DNA of 64,000 nucleotides from Chiloscyllium plagiosum (taxonomy: Eukaryota): positions 6,889,747-6,953,746 of the forward strand of contig NC_057746.1 of NCBI RefSeq assembly GCF_004010195.1. Direction: 5' to 3'. The position numbers and the translations under genes are program-made. Numbering within the stretch: the stretch's first letter is position 1; every line of letters begins with the position of its first letter. The notes under the pieces were generated by a model. It saw only the letters and a list, made by a program, of their open reading frames with translations, searched no databases and was not told where the DNA came from. This document shows positions 6,336-63,658 of the stretch, one piece after another.

Positions 6336-6449
6336 GTCAGAATTCAGCCAAAATCAGAGTGGTGCTGGAAAAGCACAGCAGGTCAAGTAGCATCTGAGGA
6401 TCAGGAAAATCAATGTTTCAGGCAAATGCCCTTCACCTGGATATCATTT

Positions 6450-9400
6450 TAGCACTGATCCGCCTCCTGCAGAGAGGGACTGGATCCCCACCCTGTGGTC
6501 AGCACTAATCCCCCTCCAGGGGAGAGGGACTGGATCCCCACCCTGTGGTCAGCACTGATCCCCCTCCTGGGGAGAGGGACTGGATCCCCATCCTGTGCTC
6601 AGCACTGATCCCCCTCCTGGGGAGACAGGGACTGGATCCCCACCCTGTGCTCAGCACTGATCCCCCTCCTGGGGAGAGGGGGACTGGATCCCCATCCTGT
6701 GCTCAGCACTGATCCCCGTCCTGGGGAGAGAGGGACTGGATCCCCACTCTGTGCTCAACACTGATCCCCCTCCTGGGGAGACAGAGACTGGATCCCCATC
6801 CTGTGCTCAGCACTGATCCCCCTCCTGGGGAGATAGGGACTGGATCCCCATCCTGTGCTCAGCACTGATCCCCCTCCTGGGGAGAGGGACTGGATCCCCA
6901 TCCTGTGTTAAGCACTGATCCCCCTCCTGGGGAGAGGGACTGGATCCTCATCCTGTGCTCAGCACTGATCCCACTCCTGGGGAGACGGACTGGAACCCCT
7001 CCCTGTGCTCAGCACTGATCCCACTCCTGGGGAGAGGGACTGGATCCCCACCCTGTGCTCAGCACTGATCCCCCTCCTGGGGAGACGGGGACTGGATCCC
7101 CACCCTGTGCTCAGCGCTGATTCCTCTCCTCGGGAGACAGGGACTGGATCCCCACCCTGTGCTCAGCACTGATCCCAATCCTGGGGAGACGGACTGGATC
7201 CCCTCCCTGTGCTCAGCACTGATCCCACTCCTGGGGAGAGGGACTGGATCCCCATCCTGTGCTCAGCACTGATCCCCCTCCTGGCGTGACAGGGACTGGA
7301 TCCCCACCCTGTGCTCAGCACTGATCCCCCTCCTGGGGAGAGAGGGACTGGATCCCCACACTGTGCTCAGCCCTGATCCCCCTCCTGGGGAGATGGACTG
7401 GAATCTAACTCTGTGCTCAGCCCTGATTCCTCTCCTCGGGAGACAGGGACTGGATCCCCACCCTGTGCTCAGCACTGATCCCCCTCCTGGGGAAACAGGG
7501 ACTGGATCCCCACCCTGAGCTCAGCACTGATCCCCCTCCTGGGGAGACAGGGACTGGATCCCCACCCTGTGCTCAGCACTGACGCCCACCTGGGGAGAGA
7601 GGGACTAGATCCCCACCCTGTGCTCAGCACTGATCCCCCTCCTGGGGAGAGGGGGACTGGATCCCCACCCTGTGCTCAGCACTGATCCCTCTCTTGGGGA
7701 GAGGGACTGGATCCCCACTCTGTGCTCAGCACAGATCCCTCTCCTGGGGAGAGAGACTGGATCCCCACCCTGTGCTCAGCGCTGATTCCTCTCCTCGGGA
7801 GACAGGGACTGGATCACCACCCTGTGCTCAGCACTGATCCCCCTCCTGGGGAGACAGGAACTGAATCCCCACTCTGTGATCAGCACTGATCCCTGTCCGG
7901 GGGAAAGAGGGACTGGATCCGCATCCTGTGCTCAGCACTGATTCCCCTCCTGGGGAGAGGGACTGGATCCCCATCCTGTGCTCAGCACTAATCCCTGTCC
8001 GGGGGAGAGAGGGACTGGATCTGCATCCTGTGCTCAGTACTGATCCCTCTCCTGGGGAGAGAGACTGGATCCTCACCTTGTGCTCAGCACTGATCCCCCT
8101 CCTGCGGAGAGGGACTGGATCCTCATCCTGTGCTCAGCATTGATCCCTCTCCTGGGGGGAGTGACTGGATCCCCATCCTGTGCTCAGCACTGATCCTCTA
8201 CCTGGGGAGAGGGCCTGGATCCCCACCCTGTGATCAGCACTGATCCCTCTCCTGGGGAGAGAGACTGGATCCTCACCTTGTGCTCAGCACTGATTCCCCT
8301 CCTCGGGAGACAGGGACTGGATCACCACCCTGTGCTCAGATCTGATCCCTCTCCTGGGGAGAGGTACTGGATCCCAACCCTGTGATCAACACTGATCCCC
8401 CTCCTGGGGTGACAGGGACTGGATCCCCACCCTGTGCTCAGCACTGATCCCTCTCCTGGGGATAGGGACTGGATCCTCATCCTGTTCTCAGCACTGATCC
8501 CCCTCCTGGGAAGAGGGACTGGATCCCCACCCTGTGCTCAGCACTGATCCCCCACCTGGGGAGAGGGACTGGATCCCCATCCTGTGCTCAGCACTGATCC
8601 TCCTCTTGCGGAGAGGGGGACTGGATCCCCATCCTGTGCTCAGCACTGATCCCCCTCCTGGGAAGAGGGACTGGATCCTCATCCTGTGCTCAGCACTGAT
8701 CCCCCTCCTGGGGATAGGGACTGGATCCTCATCCTGTTCTCAGCACTGATCCCCCTCCTGGGAAGAGGGACTGGATCCCCACCCTGTGCTCAGCACTGAT
8801 CCCCCTCCTGGGGATAGGGACTGGATCGCCATCCTGTGCTCAGCACTGATCCCTGTCCTGGGAAGAGGGACTGGATCCCCATCCTGTGCTCAGCACTGAT
8901 CCCCCTTCTGGGGAGACAGGGACTGGATCCCCATTCTGTGCTCAGTACTGATCCCCCTCCTGGGGGGAGGGCCTGGATTCCCACCCTGTGCTCAGCACTG
9001 ATCCCTGTCCTGGATCCCCACCCTCTGCTCAGCACTGATCCCTCTCCTGGGGAGAGAGGGCCTGGATCCTGACCTTCTGCTCAGCACTGATCCCCCTTCT
9101 GGGGTGATGGACTGGAATCCCACTCTGTGCTCAGCCCTGATTCCTCTCCTCGGGAGAGAGGGACTGGATCCCCACCCTGTACTCAGAACTGATCCCTCTC
9201 CTGGGGATAGGGACTGGATCCTCAGGCTGTGCTCAGCACTGATCCGGGCACAGGCCCTTCTTAACCCTAACCCTAACCCTGTGCCCGAAACGTCGAATCT
9301 CCTGTTCCCTGGATGCTGCCTGACCTGCTGTGCTGTTCCAGCAATAAAGTTTCAACTTTGATCTCCAGCATCTGCAGACCTCACTTTCTCCTCAGCACTG

Positions 9401-11570
9401 ATCCCCCTCCTGGGGATAGGGACTGGATCCCCATCCTGTGCTCAGCACTGATCCCCCTCCTGGGGAGACAGGGACTGGATCCCCACCCTGAGCTCAGCAC
9501 TGACGCCCTCTTGGGGAGAGAGGGACTGGATCCCCACCCTGAGCTCAGCACTGTTCCCCCTCCTGGGGATAGGGACTGGATCCTCACCCTGTGCTCAGCA
9601 CTGATCCCACTCCTGGGGTGAGTGGGACTGGATCCCCACCCTGTGCTCAGCACTGATCCCCCTCCTGGGGAGAGGGCCTGGATCCCCACCCTGTGCTCAG
9701 CACTGATCCCTCACTTGGGGAGAGGGACTGGATCCCCACCCTGAGCTCAGCACCGATCCCCCTCCTGGGGAGAGAGGGACTGGATCCCCACCCTGTGCTC
9801 AGCACTGATCCCCCTCTTGGGGAAATGGACTGGAATCCCACTATATGCTCAGCGCTGATTCCTCTCCTCGGGAGACAGGGAATGGATCACCACCCTGTGC
9901 TCAGCTCTGATCCCTGTCCGGGGGAGAAGGGGACTGGATCCCCACCCTGAGCTCATCACTGATCCCCCTCCTGGGGAGACAGGGACTGGATCCCCACCCT
10001 GACCTCAGCACTGATCCCCCTCCTGGGGAGACAGGGACTGGATCCCCACCCTGAGCTCATCACTGATCCCCCTCCTGGGGATACAGGGACTGGATCCCCA
10101 CCCTGAGCTCAGCACTGATCTCCCTCCTGGGGAGACAGGGACAGGTTCCCCACCCTGTGCTCAGCACTGACGCCCTCCTGGGGAGAGAGGGACTGGATCC
10201 CCACCCTGTGCTCAGCACTGATCCCCTTCCTGGGGATAGGGACTGGATCCTCATCCTGTGCTCAGCACTGATCACCCTCCTGGGGATAGGGACTGGATCC
10301 CCACCCTGTGCTCAGCACTGATCCACCTCCTGGGGAGACAGGGACTGGATCCCCACCCTGAACTCAGCACTGATCCCCCTCCTGGGGAGACAGGGACTGG
10401 ATCCTCACCCTGAACTCAGCACTGATCCCCGTCCTGGGGAGAGGGGGACTGGATCCCCACCCTGTGCTCAGCACTGATCCCTCTCTTGGGGAGAGGGACT
10501 GGATCCTCACACTGTGCTCAGCACTGATCCCTCTCCTGGGGAGAGAAACTGGATCCTCACCTTGTGCTCAGCACTGATCCCCCTCCTGGGGAGATGGACT
10601 GGAATCCCACTCTGTGCTCAGCGCTGATTCCTCTCCTCGGGAGACAGGGACTGGGTCACCACCCTGTGCTCAGAACTGATCCTCCTCCTGGGGAGACAGG
10701 GACTGGATCCCAAACCTGTGATCAGCACTGATCCCCCTCCTGGGGTGACAGGGACTGGATCCCCGCACTGTGCTCAGCACTGGTCCCTCACTGGGGGAAA
10801 GAGGGACAGGATCCCCACCCTGTCGTCAGCACTGATCCCCCTCCTGGGGAGAGGGACTGGATCCCCACCCTGTGCTCAGCACTGATCCCTCTCTGGGGAG
10901 ACAGTGACTGGATCCCCACCCTGTGCTCAGCACTGATCCCCCTCCTGGGGAGAGAGGGACTGGATCCTCACCCTGTGCTCAGCACTGATCCCCCTCCTGG
11001 GGAGACAGGGACTGGATCCCCACTCTGTGCTCAGCACTGATCCTGCTCCTGGGGAGAGAGACTGGATCCGCACCCTGTGCTCAGCACTGATCCCCATCCT
11101 GGAGAGAGAGGTACTGGATCCTCACCCTGTGCTCAGCACTGAACCCCGCCTGGGGAGAGGTACTGAATCCTCACCCTGTGCTCAGCACTGTTCCCCCTCC
11201 TGGGGAGAGAGACAGGATCACCACCCTGTGCTCAGCACTGATCCCTTTCCTGGTGAGAGTGGCACTGGATCCCCACCCTGTTCTCAGCACTGATCCCTGT
11301 CCTGGTGGGAGGGGGACTGGATCCCCACCCTGTGCTCAGCACTGATCCCCATCCTGGAGAGAGAGGGACTGGATCCTCATTCTGTGCTCAGCACTGAACC
11401 CCTCCTGGGGAGAGGTACTGGATCCTCACCCTGTGCTCAGCACCGATCCCCCTCCTGGGGAGAGAGGGACTGGATCCCCACCCTGTGCTCACTGGGGAGA
11501 GAGGGACTGGATCCCCACCCTGTGCTCAGCACCGATCCCCCTCCTGGGGAGAGAGAGACTGGACCCTGAC
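6450..11570. repeat. About 50-52 bp GC-rich minisatellite, roughly 100 copies, in MHC-I intron 4
   Basis: Unit cctgtgctcagcactgatccccctcctggggaga(ca)gggactggatccccac repeated continuously over 5.1 kb. Confidence 0.97.
9246..9390 (+). mobile_element. Short hammerhead-type Penelope-related insertion containing (TAACCC)3
   Basis: Interrupts the minisatellite with TSD ctcagcactgatcc (9232-45/9391-404); carries gcccGAAACGTC and the family tail ...ctccagcatctgcagacctcactttct. Confidence 0.8.
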
Positions 11571-11590
11571 TCACTGAGGAAAATCCTTAC

Positions 11591-12284: not shown

Positions 12285-12304
12285 CTGTGGATCACAGAGA
12301 GAGA

Positions 12305-12765: not shown

Positions 12766-12815
12766 CCAAAGGATCACCCCCTCCCTCCGCAGGGGGTGAC
12801 CCCCTAGTCACTTAC

Positions 12816-13134: not shown

Positions 13135-14105
13135 CCAATAAATACACCCCAAAATACAGAGCTCCTTGTAAATAAACCCTAAAACACAGGGCCCCATGTA
13201 AATAAACCCTAAAACACAGTGTACACTATAAATAAACCCTAAAACAGACAGCCCCCTGTAAATAAACCCTAAAACACAGGGCCCCCTGTAAATAAACCCT
13301 AAAACACAGAGCTCCCTGTAAATAAACCCTAAAACACAGGGCCCCCTGTAAATAAACCCTAAAACCCAGGGCCCCCTGTAAATAAACCCTAAAACACAGG
13401 GCCCCCTGTAAATAAACCCCAAAACACAGGGCCCCCTGTAAATAAATCCTAAAACACAGGGCCCCCTGTAAATAAACCCTAAAACACAGGGCCCCCTGTA
13501 AATAGACCCCAAAACACAGAGCCCCCTGTAAATAAACCCTAAAACACAGGGCCCTCTGTAAATAATCCCTAAAACACAGGGCCCCCTGTAAATAAACCCT
13601 AAAACACAGAGCCCCCTGTAAATAAACCCTAAAACACAGAGCCCCCTGTAAATAATCCCTAAAACACAGGGCCCCCTGTAAATAAACCCTAAAACACTGA
13701 GCCCCCTGTAAATAATCCCTAAAACACAGGGCCCCCTGTAAATAATCCCTAAAACACAGGGTCCCCTGTAAATAAACCCTAAAACACAGGGCCCCCTGTA
13801 AATAATCCCTAAAACACAGGGCCCCCTGTAAATAAACCCCAAAACACAGAGCCCCCTGTAAATAATCCCTAAAACACAGGGCCCCCTGTAAATAATCCCT
13901 AAAACACAGGGCCCCCTGTAAATAAACCCCAAAACACAGAGCCCCCTGTAAATAATCCCTAAAACACAGGGCCCCCTCCAAATAATCCCTAAAACACAGG
14001 GCCCCCTGTAAATAAACCCTAAAACACAGGGCCCCCTGTAAATAAACCCTAAAACACAGGGCCCCCTGTAAATAAACCCTAAAACACAGAGCTCCCTGTA
14101 AATAG
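13135..14105. repeat. 30-bp minisatellite (about 32 copies) at the 3' end of MHC-I intron 1
   Basis: Unit gtaaataaaccctaaaacacagggccccct in perfect 30-bp register. Confidence 0.97.
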
Positions 14106-14534
14106 ACCCCGATACTGAGCCCGCAGACACACTGTGTGAAGCAGGGACCCCAGCGATCAGTGGCCCAGTGTGAAGCCTGTGTACAGCCAAGGGTCAGACC
14201 ATGTGGAGACCCCCCGGTGCTGATCAGCTACAGAGATCCCTCAGAGACAGTCATGTTTGTATTATAACATGCCTTCTTGTTTTTCTGACCTGTAGTTATA
14301 CTTTGTATCGCTGTAATGTACCTTTTTCTTCTTCATTCTTTTTATTCCATAACTAAGGAACATCCCTCAATACTTTGTCTGTAAGATAGTAGTCAGCTGG
14401 TGATATCATTGCACTGTAACCAATGTAAAGCTGAATAAACTGTACATTGTACCTAAAATGGCGCTCTAAGTGGTGACCTATCAACTTTGCATTGAATTGA
14501 GAACATATGACAATAAAACTAATTCAATTCAATA

Positions 14535-16739: not shown

Positions 16740-16945
16740 ATGTGGAGGAGCCGGTGTTGGACTGGGGTGGACACTGTTAAAATCACACAACACCAGGTTA
16801 TAGTCCAACAGATTTATTTGGAAGCACTAGCTTTTGGAGCGCTGCTCCTTCATCAGATAGCTGTGAAGCAGGTTCAGAAGACACAGAATTTATAGCTAAA
16901 GGTTACAGTGTCATGCAGCTGAAATGATATATTGAACAAACCAGG
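16740..16945 (-). mobile_element. Family-2 hammerhead short repeat; related copies at 25737-25925, 27362-27790 and 35155-35210
   Basis: Minus strand CTGATGA-A-GGAGC-AGC-GCTCC-(A/G)AAAG-CTA at 16856-16828; shared flank aaaatcacacaacaccaggttatagtccaacag. Confidence 0.65.
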
Positions 16946-18082: not shown

Positions 18083-18176
18083 CAAATCCTGATGAAGGGC
18101 TTAAGCCCGAAATATCGACTCTCCTGCTGCTCAGATGCTGCCTGACCTGCTGTGCTTTCCCAGCACCACTCTCTCA
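18083..18176 (+). ncRNA. Minimal hammerhead-ribozyme motif in a short repeat (family 1)
   Basis: CTGATGA-A-GGGC-TTAA-GCCC-GAAA-T-ATC at 18089-18116; paralogous degenerate copy at 31720-31760. Confidence 0.6.
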
Positions 18177-18959
18177 ACAAGAACGTACTTCATCTTCAAT
18201 GGACATATTCAAGGATCTCGGGAAGAGAGTTCCAAACATTCATGGACCTCGGAGGGAATGGTTTGCCATATTTTTGTTTTGAATGAGCAAGTCCTTACTT
18301 TTAAACAGTGACTCCCTATTTCTAGACTCTCCCACAAGAGAGCACACCCTTTCTACACCTGCCCTGTCAAGAGACCTCAATATCGAACATGTTTCAATCA
18401 AGTTGTCTCTTACACTTTGAAACTGCATGTCTCCCCTGTCCAACCTTATGTCATAAGGNNNNNNNNNNNNNNNNNNNNNNNNNNNNNNNNNNNNNNNNNN
18501 NNNNNNNNNNNNNNNNNNNNNNNNNNNNNNNNNNNNNNNNNNNNNNNNNNNNNNNNNNNNNNNNNNNNNNNNNNNNNNNNNNNNNNNNNNNNNNNNNNNN
18601 NNNNNNNNNNNNNNNNNNNNNNNNNNNNNNNNNNNNNNNNNNNNNNNNNNNNNNNNNNNNNNNNNNNNNNNNNNNNNNNNNNNNNNNNNNNNNNNNNNNN
18701 NNNNNNNNNNNNNNNNNNNNNNNNNNNNNNNNNNNNNNNNNNNNNNNNNNNNNNNNNNNNNNNNNNNNNNNNNNNNNNNNNNNNNNNNNNNNNNNNNNNN
18801 NNNNNNNNNNNNNNNNNNNNNNNNNNNNNNNNNNNNNNNNNNNNNNNNNNNNNNNNNNNNNNNNNNNNNNNNNNNNNNNNNNNNNNNNNNNNNNNNNNNN
18901 NNNNNNNNNNNNNNNNNNNNNNNNNNNNNNNNNNNNNNNNNNNNNNNNNNNNNNNNNNA

Positions 18960-21900
18960 CACAGGGATCCCTGTAAATAAACCCCAAAATGAAGAGCCCC
19001 CTGTAAATAAACTCTAAAACACAGGGCCCCCTGGAAATAAACCCTAAAACCCAGACTCCTGTAATAAACCCTAAAACACAGAGCCCATTGAAAATAAATC
19101 CTAAAACACAGAGCTCCCAGTAAATAATCCCTTAAATGCAGATCACCCGGTAAATAAACCCAAAAACACAGGGCCCTGTAAATAAACTCTGAAACACAGA
19201 GCACCCTGTAAATAAACCCCAAAATACAGAGCCCGCATTAATAAACCCTAAAATGCAGAGCCCCCTGTAAATAAACCCCAAAACACAGGGCCCCCTGTAA
19301 ATAAACCCTAAAACACAGGGCCCCCTGTAAATAAACCACAAAACACAGAACACCCTGAAAATAAACCCTAAAACACAGGGCCCACTGTAAATAAACCCTA
19401 AAATGCAGAGCCCCCTGTAAATAAACCCCAAAACACAGGGCCCACTGTAAATAAACCCCAAAACACAGGGCCCACTGTAAATAAACCCGAAAACACAGGG
19501 CCCACTGTAAATAAACCCGAAAACACAGAGCCCACTGTAAATAAACCCGAAAACACAGAGCCCACTGTAAATAAACCCCAAAACACAGGGCCCACTGTAA
19601 ATAAACCCCAAAACACAGGGACCCTGTAAATAAATCCTGAAACACAGAGCTCCCTGTAAATAATCTGTAAATGTAGAGCCCCTGTAAATATACCCTAAAA
19701 CACGAAGCCCCCTGTTAATAATCCCTAAAACACACAGCCTCCTATAAATAAACCCTAAAAAGCAGGGCTCCCTGTAAATAAACCCTAAAACACATGGTCC
19801 CCTGTAAATAAACCCGAAAACAGAGCTTCCTGTAAATAAACTCTGAAACACAGAGCACCCTGTAAATAAACCCCAAAATGCAGAGCCCCCTGTAAATAAA
19901 CTGAAAAATACATAGCCCCCTGTAAATAATCCCTAAAACACAGGATCCCCTGTAAATAAACCCTAAAACACAGAGCCCCCTGTAAATAAACCCGAAAACA
20001 GAGCTTCCTGTAAATAAACTCTGAAACACAGAGCACCCTGTAAATAAACCCCAAAATACAGAGCCCGCATTAATAAACCCTAAAATGCAGAGCCCCCTGT
20101 AAATAAACCCCAAAACACAGGGCCCACTGTAAATAAACCCCAAAACACAGGGCCCNNNNNNNNNNNNNNNNNNNNNNNNNNNNNNNNNNNNNNNNNNNNN
20201 NNNNNNNNNNNNNNNNNNNNNNNNNNNNNNNNNNNNNNNNNNNNNNNNNNNNNNNNNNNNNNNNNNNNNNNNNNNNNNNNNNNNNNNNNNNNNNNNNNNN
20301 NNNNNNNNNNNNNNNNNNNNNNNNNNNNNNNNNNNNNNNNNNNNNNNNNNNNNNNNNNNNNNNNNNNNNNNNNNNNNNNNNNNNNNNNNNNNNNNNNNNN
20401 NNNNNNNNNNNNNNNNNNNNNNNNNNNNNNNNNNNNNNNNNNNNNNNNNNNNNNNNNNNNNNNNNNNNNNNNNNNNNNNNNNNNNNNNNNNNNNNNNNNN
20501 NNNNNNNNNNNNNNNNNNNNNNNNNNNNNNNNNNNNNNNNNNNNNNNNNNNNNNNNNNNNNNNNNNNNNNNGTGTTGCTGGAAAAGCGCAGCAGGTCAAG
20601 CAGCATCCAAGGAGCAGGAGAATCGATGTTTCGAGCATGAGCCCTTCTTCAGGAAAACACAGAAGCCCCCTGTAAATAAACCCTAAAACCCAGGGCCCTG
20701 TAAATAAATCCTGAAAAACACAGCCCCCTGTAAATAATCCCTAAAATACAGGGCCCTGTGGAAACAAACCAGAAAACTCCCTGTAAAAAAAACCCTAAAA
20801 ACACACAACCCCTGTAAATAAACGCTGAAACACAGGGTCCTTTAGAAATGAACACTAAAATACAGGGCTCCCTGGAACTACATCTGAAAAAACAGGGCTC
20901 CCTTGAAATAAACACTTAAAACACAGGCCCCCCCCCCCGTAAAAAAACGAAAACCCAGAGCCCTGTAAATACACCCGAAAACGCACCGTCCCCTGTAAAT
21001 ACACCCGAAAACGCACCGTCCCCTGTAAATACACCCGAAAACGCACCGTCCCCTGTAAATAAACGCTGAAACACAGGGTCCTTTGGAAATGAACACAAAA
21101 ATACAGGGCACCCTGTAACTACATCCGAACAAACAGGGCTCCCTTGAAATAAACCCTTAAAACACAGGGCCCCCTGTAAATAAACCCGAAAACCCATTGC
21201 CGCCTATAAATAATCCCTAAAACACAGTCCCCTGTAAATAAAAGCTAAAATAAACAGCCCCCTGTAAATAATCCCTAAAACACACAGTCCCCTGTAAATA
21301 ATCCCTAAAACCACAGGGCCCTGTGTAAATAAACCCTAAAACACACAGTCCCCTGTAAATAAAGCCTAAAACACAGAGCCCGCTGTAAATAATCCCTAAA
21401 ATACAGGGCCCTGTGGAAACAAACCAGAAAACTCCCTGTAAAAAAAACCCTAAAAACACACAACCCCTGTAAATAAACGCTGAAACACAGGGTCCTTTAG
21501 AAATGAACACTAAAATACAGGGCCCCCTGGAACTACATCCGAACAAACAGGGCTCCCTTGAAATAAACCCTTAAAACACAGGGCCCCCCCGTACATAAAG
21601 CCAAAAACCCAGGGCCACCTGCAAATAATCCCTAAAACACACAGCCCCGAGTAAATAAACGCAAAAACACACAGCCCCCTGGAAATAATCCCAAAACATA
21701 GGGCCTTGTGTAAATAAACCCTAAAACACAGTCCCCTGTAAATAAACCCCAAAACACAGAGCCACCTGGAAACAAACCCGAAAACCCAGGGCCCCCTGTT
21801 TAAAAAAAACCCTAAATGCAGAGCCCCCTGTAAATAAACCCTAGGTGTGGACTTGTAGGGCCGAAGGGCCTGTTTCCACACTGTAAGTAATCTAAATCTA

Positions 21901-22945
21901 AATCTAAAATGCAGAGCCCCCTGTAAATAAACCCAAAGACACAGGAATTCCTGGAAATAAACCATAAAACCCAGGGCCCTGTAATAAACCCAGGTTCCCC
22001 TGTCAATAATCCCTAAAACACAGAAACCACTGTAAATAATCCCTAAAACACAGGTCCCCCTGTCAATAATCTATAAAACACACAGCCCCCAGTAAATAAC
22101 CCCTAAAACACAGAACCCCCTGTAAATTATCACTAAAACACAGAGCTCCCTGTAAATAAACCCTAAAATACAGAGCCTCCTGTAAATAATTCCTAAAACA
22201 CAGGGTCCCTTGTAAATAATCCCGAAAACACAGCTTCCTGTAACGAATCCTAAGAACATAATGCCACTTGTAAGTAAACCCTAAAACACAGGGCACCCGT
22301 AAATAACCCCTAAATCACAGAACCCCCTCTAAATAATCCCTAAAACATAGAGCCCCCTGTAAATAAACCCTAAAACCACAGAACCCCCTGTAAATAAACC
22401 CTAAAAACAAGGGTGTCCTGTGAATAAACACTAAAACACAGGGCCCTCTGTAAAATAAATCCGAAAACACAGGGCCCCCTGGAAATACACCCTTAAACCA
22501 CAGGACCCTTGTAAATATACCCTAAAACACAGGGCTCCCTGTAAATAAACCCTAAAACACAGGGCTCCCTGTAAATAAACCATAAAACACACAACTTGCT
22601 GTTAGTAAACAATAAAACACAGAGTTCCCTGTAAATACACCCTAAAAAAAAGAAAGACCCCAGTAAATAAACCCTAAAACACAAGTGCGCCCTGTAAATA
22701 ATCCCTAAAACACACAACTCCCAGTAAAATAAACCCTAAAACACAGAGCTCCCTGTAAATACACCCTAAAAAAGAAAGCCCCCAGTAAATAAACCCTAAA
22801 ACATGGGGCACCTGTAAATAAACCCTAAAATACAGAGCCCCTTGTAAAAAAAATCGTAAAACTCAGAGCCCTCAGTAAATTAAACCCCAAAACACAGAGC
22901 TCCCTGTAAAAAACCCTAAAACACAGAGCTCCCTGTAAATAGACC
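18960..22945. repeat. Second, longer and more degenerate array of the same 30-bp minisatellite
   Basis: Same unit with many indels; spans a gap; ends in the same unique flank (aatagaccccgatactga...) as 14101. Confidence 0.95.
20572..20654 (-). mobile_element. Family-1 hammerhead short repeat inside the minisatellite
   Basis: Minus strand cCTGAAGAagggctcatgctcGAAACATC plus the family tail. Confidence 0.7.
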
Positions 22946-43539: not shown

Positions 43540-43940
43540 AATCTGTTTGAGAGAACGCTGCCACTTTTTAACCTGAAGATCTTATGACCTTTGGGAGCCT
43601 ACAACCACACGGATTAACATTGAATTCGCCAGTTTCTATATGCACCCAACCCCCACCCCATCCCAGATCCAACCCTCTGACTGAGCACTGCCCTCTTGAC
43701 CTGACCTATCGTCCCCTTTCCTTCACCCTATCCACTCCACACTTCCCACCGACCTATCACAGTCACCTCCTATCTGCATCCACGTCGCGCCCTTGCACTA
43801 CCCTTTCCACCGATTTATTTCTCAGCCGCCTTTCCCTACATAGTCCTGATGAAGGGTCATTCCTGAAATGTCGACTCTCGTGCTCCTTGGATTCTGCCTT
43901 TCCTGCTGTACTTTTTCCAGCACCACATTTTATCCACTCA
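43540..43940 (+). mobile_element. 3' end of a Penelope-like element terminating in the family-1 hammerhead module
   Basis: Decayed GSLQPHG(I)NIEF C-terminal motif, pyrimidine-rich UTR, then agtc-CTGATGA...GAAA-T-GTC-gact (43842-43876) and the family-1 tail. Confidence 0.65.
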
Positions 43941-45620: not shown

Positions 45621-46555
45621 CTCATAGAATCACGCAGTTCAATTGGTCCACACCAACCTGATATGCTAAAAAGAATTATCCCCATTGATCGCATTTGGCC
45701 CATATCCCTCTAAACACTTCCTATCCATGTTGCTGTCGAAATGTCTTTCAAGCATTATATTGTACCGGTCTCCACCACTTCCTTTAGCAGCTCGTTCCAT
45801 ATACACACCAGCCTGGTTGTGAAACTGTTGCCTCTCTGTTCTTTTTTAAATCTTCCCCCTCTCAATTTAAACCAATGGCCTCTAGTTTTGGGTTCCTTTA
45901 CAATGAGAAAAAAACCCCCTTGCCTATTCACCTTATCTATGCCCCTCAAGATTTTATAAACCTCCATAAAGTCACCTATCAGTCGCCAATGCTCCAGGGC
46001 AAAACATACTTCATGGAGCAGGGCAACAAAAATTGTAAGCACTATTCCAAAATTGGTCTCACCAATGTGGTGTACAGCTGCAACATGGTTTCTCATGTCA
46101 ATCCTAAACGCACTGACCAATGAATGCCTTCGTTACTATTTACCGGCAACACCAATTGCAAGGAGCTATTGTTATGGACCAGGCCAGACTCCCTCAAAAC
46201 GTTTCAAGAAGGTAGACCAGACCTTAGCTCTTCTACTTGTTTTAATCAGGTTTGAAAGGATATTCCAAGAGTGATGCCACTGGCCTAAATACACAGTTTT
46301 GTTATAAAAACAAGAGTTATTTGCAAGTTTCCCTAATGAAACGCGAACAAAAGTGAACAAAATATCGAATAACTTAGGTATTTAAAAACTCAATCAAATC
46401 TCTTGCAACTTCACCATGCTGTTCCAAGTCCTTGCGAGAACACCATGAAAATCCCTGAGGAAAGAAAAAGGTAAAATCAAACACAAGATCTAACAGGAGG
46501 GAGAGAGAGGAGGGGGCAGCAGGGAGACACAGCATGGAATACCTTCTTCCATGTA

Positions 46556-46872
46556 AGATTAGATTAGATTACATTACAGTGTGGAAACAGGCCCTTCGGC
46601 CCAACAAGTCCACACCGACCCACCGAAGCGCAACCCACCCATACCCCTACATTTACCCCTACCTAACACTACGGGCAATTTAGCATGGCCAATTCACCTG
46701 ACCTGCACATCTTTGGACTGTGGGAGGAAACGGAGCACTCGGAGGAAACCCACGCAGACACGGGGAGAAGGTGCAAACTCCACACAGTCAGCCGCCTGAG
46801 GCGGGAATTGAACTCGGGTCTGCGGCGCTGTGAGGCAGCAGTGCTAACCGCTGGGCCACTGTGCCGCCCACC
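46556..46872 (-). mobile_element. HE1-type tRNA-derived V-SINE; other copies at 15985-16335(-), 24360-24601(+), 24900-25330(-), 27795-28050(-), 38258-38620(-), 40510-40820(+), 49511-49828(-), and a fragment at 21843-21906
   Basis: A/B-box head, conserved gtgtggagtttgcac...gcgtgggtttcctcc core and (taatc)n tail. Confidence 0.9.
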
Positions 46873-48280
46873 GTAACTGTTTCTTTGACCAGTAGACTCA
46901 CACAGATTGCTTGCTAACCTCAAAACCAAACCAAACCAGAGCAAAGCTGAGCTGGGAGAACTGGCCACTCCCTCTTCATTGGACAAGTGTTCATTGTAAA
47001 CGCTTGAAAACATTTCGCCTGAGGCAATATCTGTTATCTATAATCAAATTGGCCCTAAAATCCATGTAAACCAGACCTCCCGTAACTTATATGTTTACGA
47101 CACCTCTGAAAACAAACCAAGGACAACATAACCTTGTTTAAGAAGCAGCAGCATCACACCCCCCCCCTTCAAAAAATGAACCATCAATATCCAAAGACGG
47201 CTTCAGTTTTAAACTCCATAATATTTAATTGTTTGTACACTGCAACATCAATATACATTACATTGACTATAAATATGCAAACATGTAATCTAAATTCCAT
47301 TCCATCTTGTTTTACTCCCACCATCGAATACTTCCCCTTCTCATCCAAGTCTTGACAATGCATTGGCAATCACGTTTTCTCGTCCTACCACATGTACAAT
47401 TTTCAAATTAAATAGCTATAACAACAAGCTCCATCTAAACAGCCTAGAAGTTTTTGTCTTTACATTTTTCCGCAAACTTCAATGGGTTATGATCAGTATA
47501 TATGATTGTCTCAGTTATGTTACTGATAACATAAATATTGAAGGTTGTAACACTGACACCAAGCTCAAAGTCTCCTTCTCAATTGTCGAATGTTTCTGCT
47601 GATGAATGCTCAATTCCCAGGAAAAATACCCCTTAGGTCTTTGGATCTTCTCGTCATCTTCCTGTCAAAGCACAGCACCGACACCCACATCACTTGCATT
47701 GATAGCCACCTTGAATGGCTTCACATAATTCGGTGTGGCAGTGGTTAACACAGCTTTCAGGCTGTCAAATGACTTCTGCCAGTTCACTATCCACTGAAAC
47801 TTCTTGTCTTTCTTTAGTAATTCAGTGAGTGAAGCAGCCACACTGCTAAAGTATGGTACGAACGTTTGATAAAAGCCACTCCATTCCAGGAATTGTAGCA
47901 TGGCTGTTTTTGTCGATGGCATGGGAAACTCCTGAATGATCTTTGTGTTTGCATTCCGTGGTGCCATCTGTCCACGTCTAATAACATTGCCCAAGAAAGT
48001 GACTTGCACTTTGGCAAATGTATGTTTAGCCAGGTTTATCACAAAGCATGTCCCCCGAAGTCGATCAAACAATTTTGATAAATGTTGCAAATGTTCCTTC
48101 CATGTGTGAATGAAAATCATCAGGTCATCCAATATATACGACACAATTGGGTAATCTGGAATGTCCTTACTGGTTAGTTTCTGAAATGTGGCTGGGGCAT
48201 TTTTCATACTAAATAGCATGAATGTAAATTGATATAATCTATTCGGCTTTACAAAAACAGAATTGTCTTCACTCTTTTGG

Positions 48281-48484
48281 GAGAAAGTGAGGACTGCAGA
48301 TGCTGGAGATCAGAGCTGAAAAATGTGTTGCTGGAAAAGCGCAGCAGGTCAGGCAGCATCCAAGGAGCAGGCGAATCGACGTTTCGGGCATAAGCATTCC
48401 TGAAGAAGGGCTTATGCCCGAAACGTCGATTCTCCTGCTCCTTGGATGCTGCCTGACCTGCTGCACTTTTCCAGCAACACATAT
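48281..48484. mobile_element. Family-1 hammerhead element, inverted (fold-back) form, 13-bp TSD; duplicate at 51236-51439
   Basis: TSD ttc(a/g)ctcttttgg at 48268-80/48485-97; intact core CTGAAGA-A-GGGC-TTAT-GCCC-GAAAC-GTC at 48400-48427; about 70-bp inverted arms. Confidence 0.85.
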
Positions 48485-51400
48485 TTCGCTCTTTTGGACA
48501 GGTCCAACTTAGAAATATAAGTTCCTTGTCCCACCTTTTCAACACAGTCGTTCAAACATGTAATTGGATATGCATCAGTCTTTGGGATTGCATTGACCTT
48601 GATATTGTCCACACATAAACATTGGTTGCCATCTAGGTTTGGCAGCAGAACGATGGGTGAGCTCCAATCTCTATAACTCACTTCGAATATGTCTTCCAAG
48701 AGCATGCATTCAATCTTATTTGCAACCGGTGCCAACTTTAGCAGCTCGTTCCATATACACACCAGCCTGGTTGTGAAACTGTTGCCTCTCTGTTCTTTTT
48801 TAAATCTTTCCCCTCTCAATTTAAACCAATGGCCTCTAGTTTTGGGTTCCTTTACAATGAGAAAAAAAAAACCCTTGGCTATTCACCTTATCTATGCCCC
48901 TCAAGATTTTATAAACCTCCATAAAGTCACCTATCAGTCGCCAATGCTCCAGGGCAAAACATACTTCATGGAGCAGGGCAACAAAAATTGTAAGCACTAT
49001 TCCAAAATTGGTCTCACCAATGTGGTGTACAGCTGCAACATGGTTTCTCATGTCAATCCTAAACGCACTGACCAATGAATGCCTTCGTTACTATTTACCG
49101 GCAACACCAATTGCAAGGAGCTATTGTTATGGACCAGGCCAGACTCCCTCAAAACGTTTCAAGAAGGTAGACCAGACCTTAGCTCTTCTACTTGTTTTAA
49201 TCAGGTTTGAAAGGATATTCCAAGAGTGATGCCACTGGCCTAAATACACAGTTTTGTTATAAAAACAAGAGTTATTTGCAAGTTTCCCTAATGAAACGCG
49301 AACAAAAGTGAACAAAATATCGAATAACTTAGGTATTTAAAAACTCAATCAAATCTCTTGCAACTTCACCATGCTGTTCCAAGTCCTTGCGAGAACACCA
49401 TGAAAATCCCTGAGGAAAGAAAAAGGTAAAATCAAACACAAGATCTAACAGGAGGGAGAGAGAGGAGGGGGCAGCAGGGAGACACAGCATGGAATACCAT
49501 CTTCCATGTAAGATTAGATTAGATTACATTACAGTGTGGAAACAGGCCCTTCGGCCCAACAAGTCCACACCGACCTGCCGAAGCACAACCCACCCATACC
49601 CCTACATTTACCCCTTACCTAACACTACGGGCAATTTAGCATGGCCAATTCACCTGACCTGCACATTTTTGGACTGTGGGAGGAAACCGGAGCACTCGGA
49701 GGAAACCCACGCAGACACGGGGAGAAGGTGCAAACTACACACAGTCAGCCGCTTGAGGCGGGAATTGAACCCGGGTCTGCGGCGCTGTGAGGCAGCAGTG
49801 CTAACCGCTGGGCCACCGTGCCGCCCACTGTAACTGTTTCTTTGACCAGTAGACTCACACAGATTGCTTGCTAACCTCAAAACCAAACCAAACCAGAGCG
49901 AAGCTGAGGTGGGAGAACTGGCCACTCCCTCTTCATTGGACACGTGTTCTTTGTAAACGCTTGAAAACATTTCGCCTGAGGCAATATCTGTTATCTATAA
50001 TCAAATTGGCCCTAAATTCCATATAAACCAGACCTCCCGTAACTTCTGGGTTTTATCACCTCTGAAAACAAACCAAGGACAACATAACCTTGTTTAAGAA
50101 GCAGCATCATCACACCTCCCCCTTCAAAAAATGAACCATCAATATCCAAAGACGGCTTCAGTTTTAAACTCCATAATCTTCAATTGTTTGTACACTGCAA
50201 CATTAATATACATCACATTGACTATAAATCTGCAAACATGTAATCTAAATTCCATTCCATCTTGTTTTACTACCACCATCGAATCCTTCCCCTTCTCATC
50301 CAAGTCTTGACAATGCATTGGCAATCACATTTTCTCGTCCTACCACATGTACAATTTTCAAATTAAATAGTTATAACAACAAGCTCCATCTAAACAGCCT
50401 GGAAGTTTTTGTCTTTACATTTTTCCGCAAACTTCAATGGGTTATGATCAGTATATATGATTGTCTCATTTATGTTACTGATAACATAAATATTGAAGGT
50501 TGTAACACTGACACCAAGCTCAAAGTCTCCTTCTCAATTGTCGAATGTTTCTGCTGATGAATGCTCAATTCCCAGGAAAAATACCCCTTAGGTCTTTGGA
50601 TCTTCTCGTCATCTTCCTGTCAAAGCACAGCACCGACACCCACATCACTTGCATTGATAGCCACCTTGAATGGCTTCACATAATTCGGTGTGGCAGTGGT
50701 TAACACAGCTTTCAGGCTGTCAAATGACTTCTGCCAGTTCACTATCCACTGAAACTTCTTGTCTTTCTTTAGTAATTCAGTGAGTGAAGCAGCCACACTG
50801 CTAAAGTATGGTACGAACGTTTGATAAAAGCCACTCCATTCCAGGAATTGTAGCATGGCTGTTTTTGTCGATGGCATGGGAAACTCCTGAATGATCTTTG
50901 TGTTTGCATTCCGTGGTGCCATCTGTCCACGTCTAATAACATTGCCCAAGAAAGTGACTTGCACTTTGGCAAATGTATGTTTAGCCAGGTTTATCACAAA
51001 GCATGTCCCCCGAAGTCGATCAAACAATTTTGATAAATGTTGCAAATGTTCCTTCCATGTGTGAATGAAAATCATCAGGTCATCCAATATATACGACACA
51101 ATTGGGTAATCTGGAATGTCCTTACTGGTTAGTTTCTGAAATGTGGCTGGGGCATTTTTCATACTAAATAGCATGAATGTAAATTGATATAATCTATTCG
51201 GCTTTACAAAAACAGAATTGTCTTCACTCTTTTGGGAGAAAGTGAGGACTGCAGATGCTGGAGATCAGAGCTGAAAAATGTGTTGCTGGAAAAGCGCAGC
51301 AGGTCAGGCAGCATCCAAGGAGCAGGCGAATCGACGTTTCGGGCATAAGCATTCCTGAAGAAGGGCTTATGCCCGAAACGTCGATTCTCCTGCTCCTTGG

Positions 51401-51975
51401 ATGCTGCCTGACCTGCTGCACTTTTCCAGCAACACATATTTCGCTCTTTTGGACAGGTCCAACTTAGAAATATAAGTTCCTTGTCCCACCTTTTCAACAC
51501 AGTCGTTCAAACATGTAATTGGATATGCATCAGTCTTTGGGATTGCATTGACCTTGATATTGTCCACACATAAACATTGGTTGCCATCTAGGTTTGGCAG
51601 CAGAACGATGGGTGAGCTCCAATCTCTATAACTCACTTCGAATATGTCTTCCAAGAGCATGCATTCAATCTTATTTGCAACCGGTGCCAACTTTAGAGGG
51701 CTATGCCTATGCCTATTGTCACAGCATCGCTTATATCCTCATCATGCATAATTATGTTTGTACTTCTGAACTTATTTCCACATATCTCCCCATGCGATAC
51801 CAATAACTCTTTCAGGTCACCTCGATTTTCCTCTGAAGGTAACTCAGTAATTTATCACAATTTTGGACAACTTCTTCTTTATCCAATTTAATTTGAGGAG
51901 TGTTCAATTCAGGATCTTCTAAAATTGATCCTCCATTTTGTGTTGTAACACATTCTCGTTTGATTTCCTTCCCTG

Positions 51976-56490: not shown

Positions 56491-56639
56491 CTCTCCCTGT
56501 GTATGAACAAATGTGCTTTATAGCAGGCAGATTAGTTTACCCCCATTAACGCAAAATGCACAACACAGTAGGAACAAAACAAACAAAATAAAAACACATG
56601 CTTGTGGTATCGAATTTGGAGAAGATTTGTCGCTCAGTT

Positions 56640-58635
56640 TGATTCTGGATGTAGGTTTGCTCGCTGAGTGGGAAAGTTTGGTTTCAGACGTTTCGTCACA
56701 GTACTAGGTAACATCATCAGTGAGCCTCCGGATGAAGCACTGGTGGTATGGTATCACAACAACATTAAGCAGGAAAAAGGAAGGAACACACTCAATATAC
56801 AAGAAAGGAAAGCATTAAAACAACTTTAAAAAAGACAAAATAACATTGTTATCCTACCTGCAGATGAAGTGCACCTGACAATCATTTTAAATCAAAGAGA
56901 GTACATTGAGAAACCGAACGCACTACAAACACTTACCAACAATAAATGTTGGTAGACCAGAACCACAACCAGAAAAATACTGGCATCCCTACTCAAAACA
57001 CTTCAGAAATCTGGAGAAATAAACAAGACTAACTTACAAGAAAGCAATCCAGATGGATCCAACACACCACGTTTCTATGGATTACCCAAAATTCACAAAC
57101 CATGAGCCTGCCTTAGATCCCGGAATAGCAACATACAGATTAGCCCAGAAGCAACACCAAAGACTAAAACACTTAGTAGAAGGCTAAAACGAATCCATTC
57201 ACTCCACACAAGAATTTCTGAAGACCGTCAAAGACACCAAGGTATAAAAGGACGAAACAATGGTCTCCTTTGTCGTAACAGCCGTGTTCATGTCCACCAA
57301 CAGCAACCTGGCCAAAGAAACATTGACTGCACTATCAGTAGGACCAAAGGCACAAACATCAATCAGCACCAACTTCATTAGCAAAGTCAGTATCGTCAAG
57401 CTTGTGGACCTACACATTACCACCCCTTTCATCTTGAACAATGAAACTTACATTCTAGATTAGAGTGGTGCTGGAAAAGCACAGCAGTTCAGACAGCATC
57501 CAACGAAACTTACATGGGATCTCCGAGACCAGGGTTTTAAGCTGAGGCAGAAATGCAGAGACTTGAACAAACAACTTTTACAACCATCCAACCCAAACTT
57601 TGGGTCCCCTACGTGGATGACACCTTTGTCATCATTCAATGAAACAAATTAGAGGAAACTATCAATAATACCCTTACTGGCGAAAACAAAATCACTAAAG
57701 AGGAGATAACAAACAATAAAACTGACATTTCTAGATGTCGCAGTAGATGGAACAGCCAAAGGGGAACTTCAAACAAGTGTCTCCAGGAAAACAACACATA
57801 CGGACAAATACTAAACTACATCCCAACATCCACAAACGAAGCTGCATTAGAACATTATTCCAACGAGCCACCACACACTGCAACACAGAGAAATTATGAA
57901 GACCAGAGGAAAGTCACAGAGACAGTGCATTCAAAATGAAAGAGTACTCAACAAAGCCAAACAACAGACAGAACACATCTAGAAATGTAGCCACTCTCCT
58001 CGTCATCAAAAGTATCTCGGAAATGACTGCCAGACTGCTCAGACCACTTGGTATGATGGTAGCCCATAAACCCACCAACACACTCAGACAGCAGCCAATG
58101 AACTTGAAGGACCCTATACAGACAACAAGAAAAACTAATGTCATGTTCAAAATACAATGCAAGAACAGTAACAAACATTACATTGGACAAACAGGCAGAT
58201 CATTAGCCTCCAGAAAACATGAACATCAACTAGTCACAAAAAGACATGGCCCACTCTCAGTCGTACCTTTACATACAAATGAGGAAAGACACTACTTCGA
58301 CTGGGACAACACATCCCATCCTCGGAAAAGCCAAACAGAGACATGTGCGAGAAGTTCAAGAAGCATGACATTCCAACCGGAACTCGAGCCACAAGCACGT
58401 TGACTTGAATACCATTTACCAACACCGAGAAAAAGATCAGGAAAAGACATCACCCCAGGAAATGATGTAACCACATGAAATGACGTTGCCAACCAAAGGA
58501 AACCTCGACACATAAATAAAAAGGGATCCATTCCACTAGTGTTTCACCTAGGATCTCACTGCTGATGTTAACTTGTATGGTGACGAAACGTCTGAAATCA
58601 AACCTTCCATCTCAGCGAGCAAACCTACACCCACA
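56640..58635 (+). mobile_element. Penelope-like retroelement (decayed RT plus GIY-YIG endonuclease) with inverted terminal repeat
   Basis: Fragments PRFYGLPKIHKP, MVSFVVTAVF, YVDDTFVI, FLDV and KHYIGQTGR; 56644-56746 is the reverse complement of about 58533-58632. Confidence 0.9.
56680..56726 (-). ncRNA. Minimal type-I hammerhead ribozyme in the Penelope inverted repeat
   Basis: tca-CTGATGA-T-GTTAC-loop-GTGAC-GAAAC-GTC-tga; the sense copy at 58559-58592 has a core mutation (CTGCTGA). Confidence 0.7.
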
Positions 58636-58829
58636 TTCTCGTGTCAGGAAAAAAAAATAGAGAAGGCATGTCAAATAAGTACATTTCTCTTGCATAGAAA
58701 TGTAGAAACAGAGTAAGTAGGAACAAGAGCAGCCCATTCAGCTCGAGAAGCCTGCTTCCCCATTCAGTAAGTTGCACCCCGACCTGGGTGTCATGGTTGA
58801 CCAGTTGCTGAATGTTGGCAGGCACGTGC

Positions 58830-60342: not shown

Positions 60343-61512
60343 GTAAGGCACTTCTCGCTGGTAGCAGAACTTTCAATGTAGTTGTTACTGGTGTCAGAAT
60401 CAGGATACTGTTGCTTATTTTGAAGTGTTTGATTTGTGCACTGTAATAATTAGAATCAAAGAATCTGATCCAATTTCCAATTGTCAATTTTGTTAATCGA
60501 GAGGACGTAGTCTCTTCAAAGTCCAGTCCTGAATGAAGTTGCCTATGACTTGAGAGACAACATTTTACTTTTAAATCAGCATCAAGCTGTAGACAAGTGG
60601 AAAAGTTCTCAAAGTGACGTCCAGCTTCTTTGGGGAAGGGGAAAGGGAAATTCCATGTTAATGTTGTAACACTGGGAGAAATTGGTGAGATTCTGCCCTC
60701 TGGTAAAGACTCTGACACCCTGCTGGTGCACCAGAGCCACCCTGTCCTTGTCTTCATTCCCACAGCCCACACTGGCTGCCAACCCAGCAATGCAGATGAG
60801 AATATCAAACAGAGAGAAACTGTGGGTGTGCAGGTGCATTCAATGGTAACAACATTGAAAGGAGCCTTAACACACCAGCTCATGAGATGAAGCTGCTATT
60901 ACAAAAGTTCATGAATAAGGACTTTAGGAGCCATGTCTGATGGTGTTTGCATTTCCCATACCAGCAGGATCTCAAATCTTTCTGATAGACCCACATTCCC
61001 CTTTTGCAAATTTATCACTTGGAAAGAACTAGTATCAAGCCAAGCCACTGAGAAGGTGACAAGAGGGCCCTGCTTATTCAGCAGTACTCCAAGTCACATT
61101 CACATACTACAGCTTGAGTTGAAGTTTATTGTTAAACATTTCAATTCCAAAATCCATATGATCACTTTTTGCTCATCATGAAGCTAGCCGGAAAGTTGTG
61201 TTCCTCTGGGTTAATTTGCGTTGTTCCATCATAGTCTCTCGAAGCGATTCTGCCATGGAGTGTTGAACTAATCACAGTACTCCCTGTCCAGGTGATGGTA
61301 TTTTACAAAGATGGCAATGGCTGCACCTATCATCTTAAAGTTATTCAGAAAGTCCAGTGATTTGAATCCACAAGAACTGTAAATGCTGTGCTCACCCAAA
61401 AGACTGTGGAAAGAGAGTGTTTTGCCAATGAAGGACAAATATTAAAAATTACAGGTGAAATCCTCTTACATTGAAGAGTTTCTATGATCATTTATTTGTG
61501 TTCATTTTGCAG

Positions 61513-62417
61513 CTAATTTTCTGACAATCACTATACTCTCCCGAGGAAAGTGTGGTCTCTCAAAATGCATCACCCGTTACCTGGTGGCCATGGCAGTAGC
61601 TGATCTAATGGTTCTGATATTTGAAGTCATTCTGTTTGAGATTGAAGATGCTTATTTCCCAGATACCTTTCTGAACTATACCCCTCTTTGTAGCCTCAAT
61701 GTGGTATTTCTTTATATATCTATTGATTGTTCTGTTTGGCTAACTGTGACTTTCACCTTTGATCGATTTGTTAGCATTTGTTCCCGAAAATGGCAACCCA
61801 AATATTGCACTGAGAAAAATGCCACATTGGTGATAGCAGTGGTATGTGTTTTATGCGTTCTTAAAAATTCTCCATTCTATTTCATATTTGAGCCTGTGGA
61901 AATAATTGAAAATGTCCCATGGTTCTGCTCTGTAAAAGCAGAATTTTATGTCTTACCACAATGGGCAGCTATTTTGTGGGTTGACACAGTTTTAACCCCA
62001 TTTGCACCATTTGTTTTAATCGGGCTGCTCAACATTGTGACCATCAGACACATTGCAGTAACCAACAGATTGAGGAGGAAACTCCAAGGAAAGCGGGATA
62101 CTCGTGATCATACTGACCCTGAGTTGGAAAAAAGAAGGAAGTCCATCATTTTACTTCTCGCAATATCTGGCACTTTCTTACTGTTATGGATGGTTATATT
62201 TATGTTTTTCATATCTGTGCAGTTTACAGACACACAATTTTTAGAAAAAAATTACAATGACCCTTATACCATTTCTGAACAATGTGGGTATATGCTTCGG
62301 AATTTGAGTACTTGTACAAACACCTTTATTTATGGAGTTTCACAGGGAAAGTTCCAAAATGAGTTAAAGAATTTTGTTCGTCGTCCTCTGGCGATCATTT
62401 GTAAAATAAGGAAGTAA
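61513..62417 (+). CDS. GPR139-like rhodopsin-family GPCR, exon 2 (324 aa spliced product)
   Basis: ttttgcag acceptor; ANFLTITILSRGKCGLSKCITRYLVAMAVADL..., FTFDRF at the DRY position, YCT in ICL2, NTFIY at the NPxxY position; multiple hydrophobic TM segments; open to TAA at 62417. Confidence 0.92.
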
Positions 62418-63459
62418 GTCAGTAGAATTAATATGGAAAGGTCTTTGATTGCAGTCGCAGTGTTTGTATCGCTAAGCCAAGAGGCGTGTGTTCAAGTGCC
62501 ACCTATTCCAGAGATGAGCTATAACATCTCTGATCAGTTTGATGAGAAGCATGTAGGAATTAAATGCAACTGCATCCATTAGACTTTGCTCCATAGAATC
62601 ACAGGCTGGAATGGACAGAGTAAGGAACTATTTATTTCCTATGTCAGTCGTCACAATGTTGTAGCAAAAACAGACTTCGTCCCATTATTTAACATCATAT
62701 ACAGTGGCAATTTTGATGCCAAAGTAATCACTTTTCGCACCTGACATAAAATGTACAAGATCTATAATCATCTATCTCTGACTGGTCTCTTCTTCCCATT
62801 TGTTTTAGTGACATCCTTCAATAGTAACCTGCTAGAAGAAGTTTATTTCTTTGTTGAAATTGCCAACTGTTCCATTCAATTCATGGATATTCTTGAAGCA
62901 TTGATACTGTTTAAGTCAGCGTAAAGGTCCTGCCTGGCCTAAAGTATTCTTAACAATTTACAGTTTTCCCCCAAAGTAAAGAGTAAACTGCACTGACAAT
63001 AATATAACTGAACTAATTTGGTTAGCGTTTCGCTGGATTGTTCTCAGTCGTTTGGTTTGTTCCATATGTCATCATTTCAATGGGATATGTTCCTCTTCCT
63101 AAACTGATGGCATTAACAGTTATCACCGTTAAGGTTCAAGACTGTTTTAAATCAAGACTCAATCACAGAATACTTACAGCACAGAAATCGATCTATCAGC
63201 TCTTCTTGGCTGTACTGGCTCTTCCAAACGACATTTCACTTAGTATTCTCCGGCCTACTGTCTGTAGCAATGCACATTGTTGTCTTTAAACCAATTGCCT
63301 AGTCGCCACTTGAATGTCTCACTAAAAACTGTCTCCACCTTAATCCAGACCTTCACCATGTGCTCCATCTGAAACCAAACTAACGTCTCAGTCAAGTTCA
63401 GCATGTTCGCCCTTCCTGTTCGATTGTATGCTCCTATTAATCAAGGTTATGATATTGTA

Positions 63460-63658
63460 CTGAGAGAAAGTGAGGATAGCAGATGCTGGAGATTAGAGTC
63501 AAAACGTGTGGCCCTGGAAAGCACTGCTGGCCTGGCAGCATCTGATGAGCAGGAGAGTCAATGTTTCGAACATAATCTTTTCATCAGGAGTGACGAGCAG
63601 CACTCCAGCTCCTCAGATGCTGCTTGACCGTCTGTGTTTTTCCAGCACCACACTTTTT
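63460..63658. mobile_element. Family-1 hammerhead element, inverted form, about 15-bp degenerate TSD
   Basis: ggttatgatattgta (63445-59) versus ggctatgatgttgta (63659-73); minus-strand cCTGATGAaaagattatgttcGAAACATT. Confidence 0.7.

Follow-up and report, generated by a model that had tools for sequence, protein, structure and literature searches.

Hammerhead-bearing repeats of a shark genome as terminal repeats of Penelope-like elements, many of them possibly copied from the leader of uncleaved RNA

A stretch of 64,000 nucleotides from Chiloscyllium plagiosum (contig NC_057746.1, positions 6,889,747 to 6,953,746; here called the window) is strewn with short repeats that carry the core of a hammerhead (HHR) ribozyme, raising the question of what these repeats are and how they were made. 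In the original prediction they were independent non-coding, ribozyme-processed, retrozyme-like RNAs that Penelope RT had mobilised. Positions within the repeats are counted here from C3 of the hammerhead core, which is position 0, with the predicted cut falling between +27 and +28. The copies in the window, assigned to families A to D, are as follows.

6345-6441, minus strand: family A pLTR (terminal repeat) stub, -2 to +83, core box base changed.
9246-9391, plus strand: family A stub, +13 to +124, in front of which lie an inverted piece of 15 nt and, at 9262-9279, three telomeric repeats; TSD within a minisatellite.
16741-16945, minus strand: 3' end of family B, putatively the second Neptune-type PLE (Penelope-like element); G12 lost.
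18083-18178, plus strand: family A stub, boxes intact.
20572-20655, minus strand: family A stub, boxes intact, abutting an assembly gap.
25234-25310, plus strand: family A stub without CUGANGA; no insertion at the paralogous site near 16320.
25737-25926, minus strand: family B 3' end, duplicate of that at 16741 in a 1.3-kb segmental copy.
27140-27263, no strand assigned: family A head-to-head pair without HHR, 12-bp TSD (27129/27264).
27367-27780, minus strand: family B 3' end, -168 to +91, plus an inverted upstream piece.
28848-28925, minus strand: family C tail fragment.
30391-30519, minus strand: family A solo stub, -3 to +125, tail present, 12-bp TSD, G5 lost.
30593-30730, minus strand: 3' end of family C, putatively an older Neptune-type PLE.
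31266-31340, minus strand: family C stub, heavily decayed.
31720-31761, plus strand: family A fragment, downstream flank common to the 18083 copy, G12 lost.
35127-35206, minus strand: family B tail fragment.
37367-37493, no strand assigned: family C head-to-head pair without HHR.
43589-43931, plus strand: family A copy, 5'-truncated and including 280 nt of parental 3' UTR, the link within the window to the long element.
48280-48484, no strand assigned: family A head-to-head insertion, with long arm and tail on the minus strand, short arm with intact HHR (48395-48430) on the plus strand, and a 13-bp TSD.
51235-51439, no strand assigned: family A head-to-head insertion, second copy of that at 48280 through a 2.96-kb tandem duplication (45782-51696).
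56612-58655, plus strand: family D, a decayed, putatively Poseidon-type PLE with RT remnants and a GIY-YIG ORF piece (57900-58403); its 3' pLTR lies near 58500-58633 and its inverted 5' pLTR at 56612-56751, with an intact HHR at 56680-56728 on the minus strand.
57454-57500, minus strand: family A fragment, +39 to +97, within the family D element, 15-bp TSD.
63460-63662, no strand assigned: family A head-to-head pair, older, TSD at about 63445/63659.

All twelve family A repeats and the five other motifs of the original prediction lie where it had placed them, but they are not a dozen separate copies, some being segmental duplicates: the insertions at 48281 and 51236 are made one by the tandem duplication (98.5%), and the motifs at 16830 and 25820 sit inside the 1.3-kb duplication (94%). 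The three predicted families A, B and C are real, whereas family D was overlooked, as were the A copy at 43589-43931, the B copy at 35127 and the C copies at 28848 and 37367. The five predicted TSDs are found, at 30378, 48268, 57439, about 63445 (with 1-2 mismatches) and 9232 (inside a minisatellite of 50-52 bp), and the TSD at 27129/27264 is a sixth; the presence of TSDs indicates that the repeats moved as units.

The hammerhead motif is real and enriched. The box pattern CTGANGA-N(1-30)-GAAAC occurs 9 times in the window against 1.98 ± 1.39 in shuffles, and a strict minimal-HHR descriptor, run on the window, on 585 kb of arbitrary genome stretches and on 5 Markov controls, finds 27 minimal HHRs in the arbitrary DNA compared with 0-1 in each control. 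Six motifs of the window pass this descriptor, two of them absent from the original prediction. That most copies carry all or part of the core can be upheld for the motif itself, but most are no longer intact: among the named copies only 18083, 20572 and the plus-strand arm of 48281/51236 pass, a box base is changed in 6345, 30390, 31720, 31270 and all three family B motifs, and CUGANGA is missing from the copies at 9246 and 25237. Two further candidates, at 12185 and 57218, match the box pattern and fail the descriptor.

Over the four families the core boxes are constant, while stems I and II and the palindromic stem III differ yet pair, as the descriptor matches show. Family A has stem II GGGC/GCCC with ACGU, family B stem II GGAGC/GCUCC with AGCU, family C stem I AGUU/AACU and family D stem I UCA/UGA, so that the geometry of minimal type-I hammerheads of the Penelope kind, as proposed, is held with different stems. 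Retention of the boxes while the stems change but still pair points to selection on the HHR, which would act in the master elements and not in the stubs; the latter do not appear to have been released by the predicted HHR cleavage. Monomer MFE folds show no extra stability relative to shuffles (z -0.1 to -1.1). An Rfam scan for hammerhead, tRNA and 5S gives no match at E<=5, with weak miRNA-hairpin matches alone, on inverted arms, and ARAGORN finds no tRNA. The repeats are not tRNA or 5S SINEs, given the lack of such matches, nor MITEs, as their inverted arms are unequal and come from the end of a PLE.

Neither are the repeats particular to this region, for which a very high density had been claimed. 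Profile searches with the four families give 27 matches in the window, or 44 per 100 kb with duplicated ones counted, against 371 matches in 120 genome stretches of 10 kb (1.16 Mb), or 31.9 per 100 kb and 0-10 per 10-kb stretch, which places the window at the genome-wide norm. Extrapolation from the 371 matches to the genome of 3.56 Gb gives an estimate of ∼1.1 million copies. Genome-wide there are 48,069 exact matches to the 30-nt intact family A core and 0 to the control.

The origin of the repeats is seen from their surroundings elsewhere in the genome. Family A lies downstream on the same strand in 18 of 20 RT-selected loci (four of the 20 resemble copies of one duplicated segment), most about 0.4-0.7 kb from the RT probe, and an inverted family A copy lies upstream in many of them. 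Conversely, 5 of 20 loci selected by family A have a common pyrimidine-rich upstream sequence, two of the five perhaps being one place. At one locus (L002) the family A upstream sequence leads into RT, a C-X4-C-X2-C linker and GIY-YIG, and another (L036) is a whole decayed unit, comprising a pLTR from -12, an ORF start, RT, endonuclease and pLTR. The N-terminus of the ORF comes after +125 and matches full-length homologues, which bear RT, PF26215 and GIY-YIG. Elements with RT and GIY-YIG end, on the 3' side, in the stub sequence, which in the whole unit also stands directly before the ORF. A single ORF with RT then GIY-YIG is present, interrupted by stops or frameshifts in all copies seen, as are direct and inverted pLTRs, an optional tail and a TSD. 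Among named sequences the RT is closest to those of carpet sharks (82-86% identity) and rays.

The other families tell a similar story. Family B forms a staircase of 5' truncations that reaches endonuclease sequence in L047 and L058, family C reaches it in 3 of 20 loci, and family D is represented in the window by its decayed 2-kb element, with no zinc linker and an inverted 5' pLTR. Against Pfam, two short RT pieces are unmatched and other pieces give weak RVT_1 and GIY-YIG matches only; a PDB search returned nothing. The C-X4-C-X2-C linker is found in translations of families A and B and is absent in D. A CX2-5CxxC linker between RT and endonuclease is described as the mark of the Neptune clade (PMC8557442), and by this linker criterion, rather than by a tree with named references, A and B would be of Neptune type and D of Poseidon type; family C we call Neptune-like from its similarity to A alone.

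Each family shows a continuum from stub to longer 5'-truncated copies, and the subfamilies of the stubs are those of the long copies. We conclude that the repeats are almost certainly the pLTRs of four protein-coding PLE families. The proposal that Penelope RT made them is borne out, since the stubs are pLTRs of coding elements, whereas their status as independent non-coding, ribozyme-processed RNAs is not, each family being the pLTR of a coding element with its continuum of longer copies.

How the stubs arose is best judged from their ends, which were scored by per-copy class because subfamilies diverge upstream of -4 to -10. Arbitrary DNA yields 71 young cores, of which 26 continue into the parent UTR, 25 are head to head, 17 are flank-bounded (a few of these being unrecognised extended copies) and 3 are at gaps. 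With the gap cases excluded, 42 of 68 young copies stop within about 14 nt before the HHR, away from the cut site. Head-to-head arms begin at -10 to 0 in every case (51/51). Stub 3' ends fall at two fixed places, about +81 to +95 and +125, and 49 of the 51 arms fit a pairing of one long arm (near +125) with one short arm (below +108, mostly +81 to +95). Head-to-head stubs are often inside one TSD, and a TSD was called in 63 of 70 young insertions. Some arms extend to -6 to -10, upstream of the start proposed below, and family D copies mostly run far upstream.

That the 5' ends of the stubs lie ∼30 nt upstream of the predicted cut implies copying from uncleaved RNA. Many stubs of the four coding PLE families were probably made by copying the front 85-130 nt of such RNA. 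Transcription would begin four bases ahead of the HHR core, at A(-4), where the context TCATTCC resembles an initiator. The enzyme would nick both target strands and prime inside the 5' leader, at two internal sites. The resulting short cDNAs would run off the RNA 5' end, at times gaining an extra base copied from the cap, and would then be joined to the target or to one another by microhomology. Twin priming at the two sites could thus account for the pairs of long and short arms. Longer copies would have been primed at the downstream pLTR and truncated at the 5' end in the ordinary way. That the RNA has a defined 5' end is likely, and copying of its cap is plausible though unproven; for the full leader-copy mechanism we put the chances at even or slightly better. 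About evenly balanced is the wider reading, in which twin priming at two internal sites would have turned the capped 5' leader of Penelope mRNA into complete cDNAs that account for a large share of the ∼one million stubs; the genome would then preserve, as a fossil map, where transcription and the two RT reactions started and how the inverted pLTR arose, with free 3' ends occasionally extended by telomerase before sealing.

The main rival holds that the stubs are plain, early-terminating 5' truncations from the downstream pLTR, whose pile-up reflects microhomology of ATTCC with AT-rich nicks or a pausing RT rather than any special 5' end of the RNA. We consider this unlikely, though several observations speak for it: longer copies do form a continuum, many solo junctions overlap the TSD by AT, ATT or GATT, and the anole endonuclease is reported to favour ATT (PMC11167929). 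However, the other ATT words of the element gather no ends, and head-to-head arms, which join each other and not the target, start in the same -10 to 0 window.

The junction bases bear on both readings. In the youngest subfamily a non-parental purine precedes A(-4) in 3,225 copies compared with 514 before T(-6), with G/A at -5 of 2,397/828, a 2.9-fold excess of G over A, and G/A at -7 of 27/73 among the 100 matches listed (19/23 without the mirror-junction class). In 20 solo cases this G is inside the TSD in 13, a lone extra base in 2, at the end of filler in 4, and without a TSD in 1. Since it is thus mostly in the TSD and rarely a lone untemplated base, target preference or ATT microhomology could account for the G and the pile-up alike, and plain truncation gains further from the second subfamily, which has G in 1 of 10 non-parental cases among the matches listed. 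Against this, 8 of 24 inverted cases have short untemplated spacers that end in G, compared with 2 of 10 ending in A; the 24 inverted G cases, a tally that omits 6 cases with G at -6, comprise 4 lone spacers, 4 ends of 2-nt spacers, 7 ends of longer filler and 9 derived from the other arm.

The one informative RNA run (poly(A) single-cell reads) has no discrete start or end; its depth drops roughly fivefold at -4 and the loose ends are mixed, as expected if genomic stubs are transcribed as passengers. The pyrimidine tract and AG that precede the HHR in B, C and some A copies suggested a 3' splice acceptor, a candidate set aside as no exon-1 sequence was seen on stubs.

We regard as very improbable the reading in which the short units move in trans as non-autonomous, retrozyme-like RNAs in their own right, the HHR having excised them as dimers or circles. 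The real HHR geometry in four families, the constant 3' ends and TSDs, the roughly 48,000 exact intact cores and the reported derivation of Xenopus retrozymes from PLE pLTRs (bioRxiv 10.64898/2026.07.22.740005) would all suit it. Yet tandem arrays are absent, with only 3 of 88 cores having a same-strand neighbour within 600 bp and no run of three; the 30 nt upstream of the cut are retained, 5' ends falling at -10 to 0, with no gathering of inverted arms at +28; stubs and long copies have their subfamilies in common; and the hairpin of head-to-head copies hides the HHR, the 48281 insertion folding as a single long hairpin of -157 kcal/mol that buries it. Equally improbable is an origin of head-to-head stubs by self-priming on an antisense transcript, by which Arkhipova et al. 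account for head-to-head palindromes in rotifer Penelope elements (PMC3846280) and to which the palindromic junctions seen here would conform, since many junctions have spacers or unequal arm starts and the long/short arm rule fits two start sites on a sense template (PMC11167929).

A separate observation concerns the copy at 9246, in which three telomeric repeats lie between the inverted piece and the main arm. Telomeric repeats in this polarity occur at 8 loci genome-wide, 7 of them as filler inside an insertion; the opposite polarity gives 10 matches, of which 3 of 5 inspected are inside an insertion, one with about 11 repeats. Such filler is rare, at a rough estimate of about 1 in 10,000, and has no strand bias; the presence of both polarities rules out its addition solely to the cDNA strand. 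It resembles the telomeric insertions described at repaired breaks (PMC2246262), and telomerase may have acted on a free 3' end.

As ribozymes these motifs are of a known kind and mostly dead copies, and their value is mechanistic. For the formation of pLTRs, tails and inverted 5' copies by PLEs, tens of thousands of young stubs yield exact predictions: that the RNA begins at -4, that RT initiates near +88 and +125, and that cleavage is dispensable. Hammerhead tallies across genomes of such animals mostly count retroelement debris.

We found no literature on these shark Penelope stubs in what were mostly open-access main texts; the supplements to PMC4209133 and the bioRxiv report may list shark families. 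Hammerhead-bearing PLE pLTRs as such have already been published by Cervera and De la Pena (2014), whose account has minimal HHRs of PLE pLTRs cleaving poorly in vitro and occurring mostly as single, dispersed motifs, probably truncated PLE copies, as here (PMC4209133). The cores match theirs in CUGANGA, one extra base, a short stem II with G10.1-C11.1, a palindromic 15.2-16.2, a short stem I and opposite-strand pairs. Unlike the present case, the main part of that account includes no shark, sharp 5' boundary or long/short arm rule, and the copy number here is far above the 4,000-9,000 that it gives for coelacanth and Xenopus.

Like the EN+ PLEs described so far (Neptune, Penelope/Poseidon), the elements show 5' truncation, a pLTR, an inverted 5' copy, an optional tail of 30-40 bp and a TSD, whereas most insertions here, unlike those described, consist of the pLTR alone (PMC8557442, PMC3846280). 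The Poseidon protein of Anolis carolinensis extends both target strands in vitro without needing HHR cleavage, and its RT initiates at two internal positions that flank the tail, close to the beginning of the transcript (Frangieh et al. 2024, PMC11167929). In the anole element the ORF begins inside the HHR, whereas the family A stub lies upstream of the ORF start; cap-ended short products and genomic head-to-head joining fall outside the subject of that study, as far as its main account goes. With metazoan non-LTR retrozymes the repeats have in common a type-I HHR, PLE ancestry and large TSDs, but retrozymes are described as head-to-tail units of 150-450 bp with mostly canonical HHRs and circular RNA, whereas the shark copies are dispersed or head-to-head stubs with minimal HHRs (PMC7229834; bioRxiv 10.64898/2026.07.22.740005).

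In insertions at six other loci of the genome (L135:2135-2655, L178, L199, L238, L245 and L282), the hammerhead-bearing terminal repeat (pLTR) continues into the ORF's beginning and then jumps either to the 3' UTR or again to the hammerhead motif (HHR), an arrangement that suggests template switches from one end of the RNA to the other.

A single low-depth contig from sequencing run X3 closes back from the predicted cut site onto position -4, counted from C3 of the HHR core (joint 7515 to 7483 of locus L130); this joint is one record and alone constitutes no evidence.

Telomeric repeats occur as filler at the 5' junctions of Penelope stubs, both at window 9246-9280 and at loci L327, L329-L331, L334, L335, L337, L338 and L340. 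The filler lies between the pLTR arms or within the target-site duplication, in both polarities, and in L331 telomeric repeats flank the joint on either side, head to head.

Several further features are located in the window:

6451-11563; 13139-14109, 18969-22946: large minisatellite arrays, 50-52-bp and 30-bp
45782-51696: tandem duplication (2.96-kb, 98.5%) containing Gypsy-like RT/RNase H fragments
56612-58655: decayed Poseidon-type element in which the 5' pLTR is inverted and a minimal HHR remains intact
61488-62417, + strand: stop-free 309-aa frame matching a rhodopsin-family 7TM receptor model (E 2.6e-21)

The Gypsy-like fragments within the tandem duplication are the insertion site of the family A head-to-head pair, and the 30-bp array belongs to a larger duplicated block. 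The Poseidon-type element, of family D, shares its contig with close copies (L088, L089), located 16 and 32 kb downstream. The 309-aa frame is probably a single-exon orphan GPCR.

In families B and C and in older family A copies, an AG with a pyrimidine tract, resembling a splice acceptor, is found 2-9 nt upstream of the HHR core. In Drosophila Penelope, according to PMC4209133, helix I is the end point of an intron.
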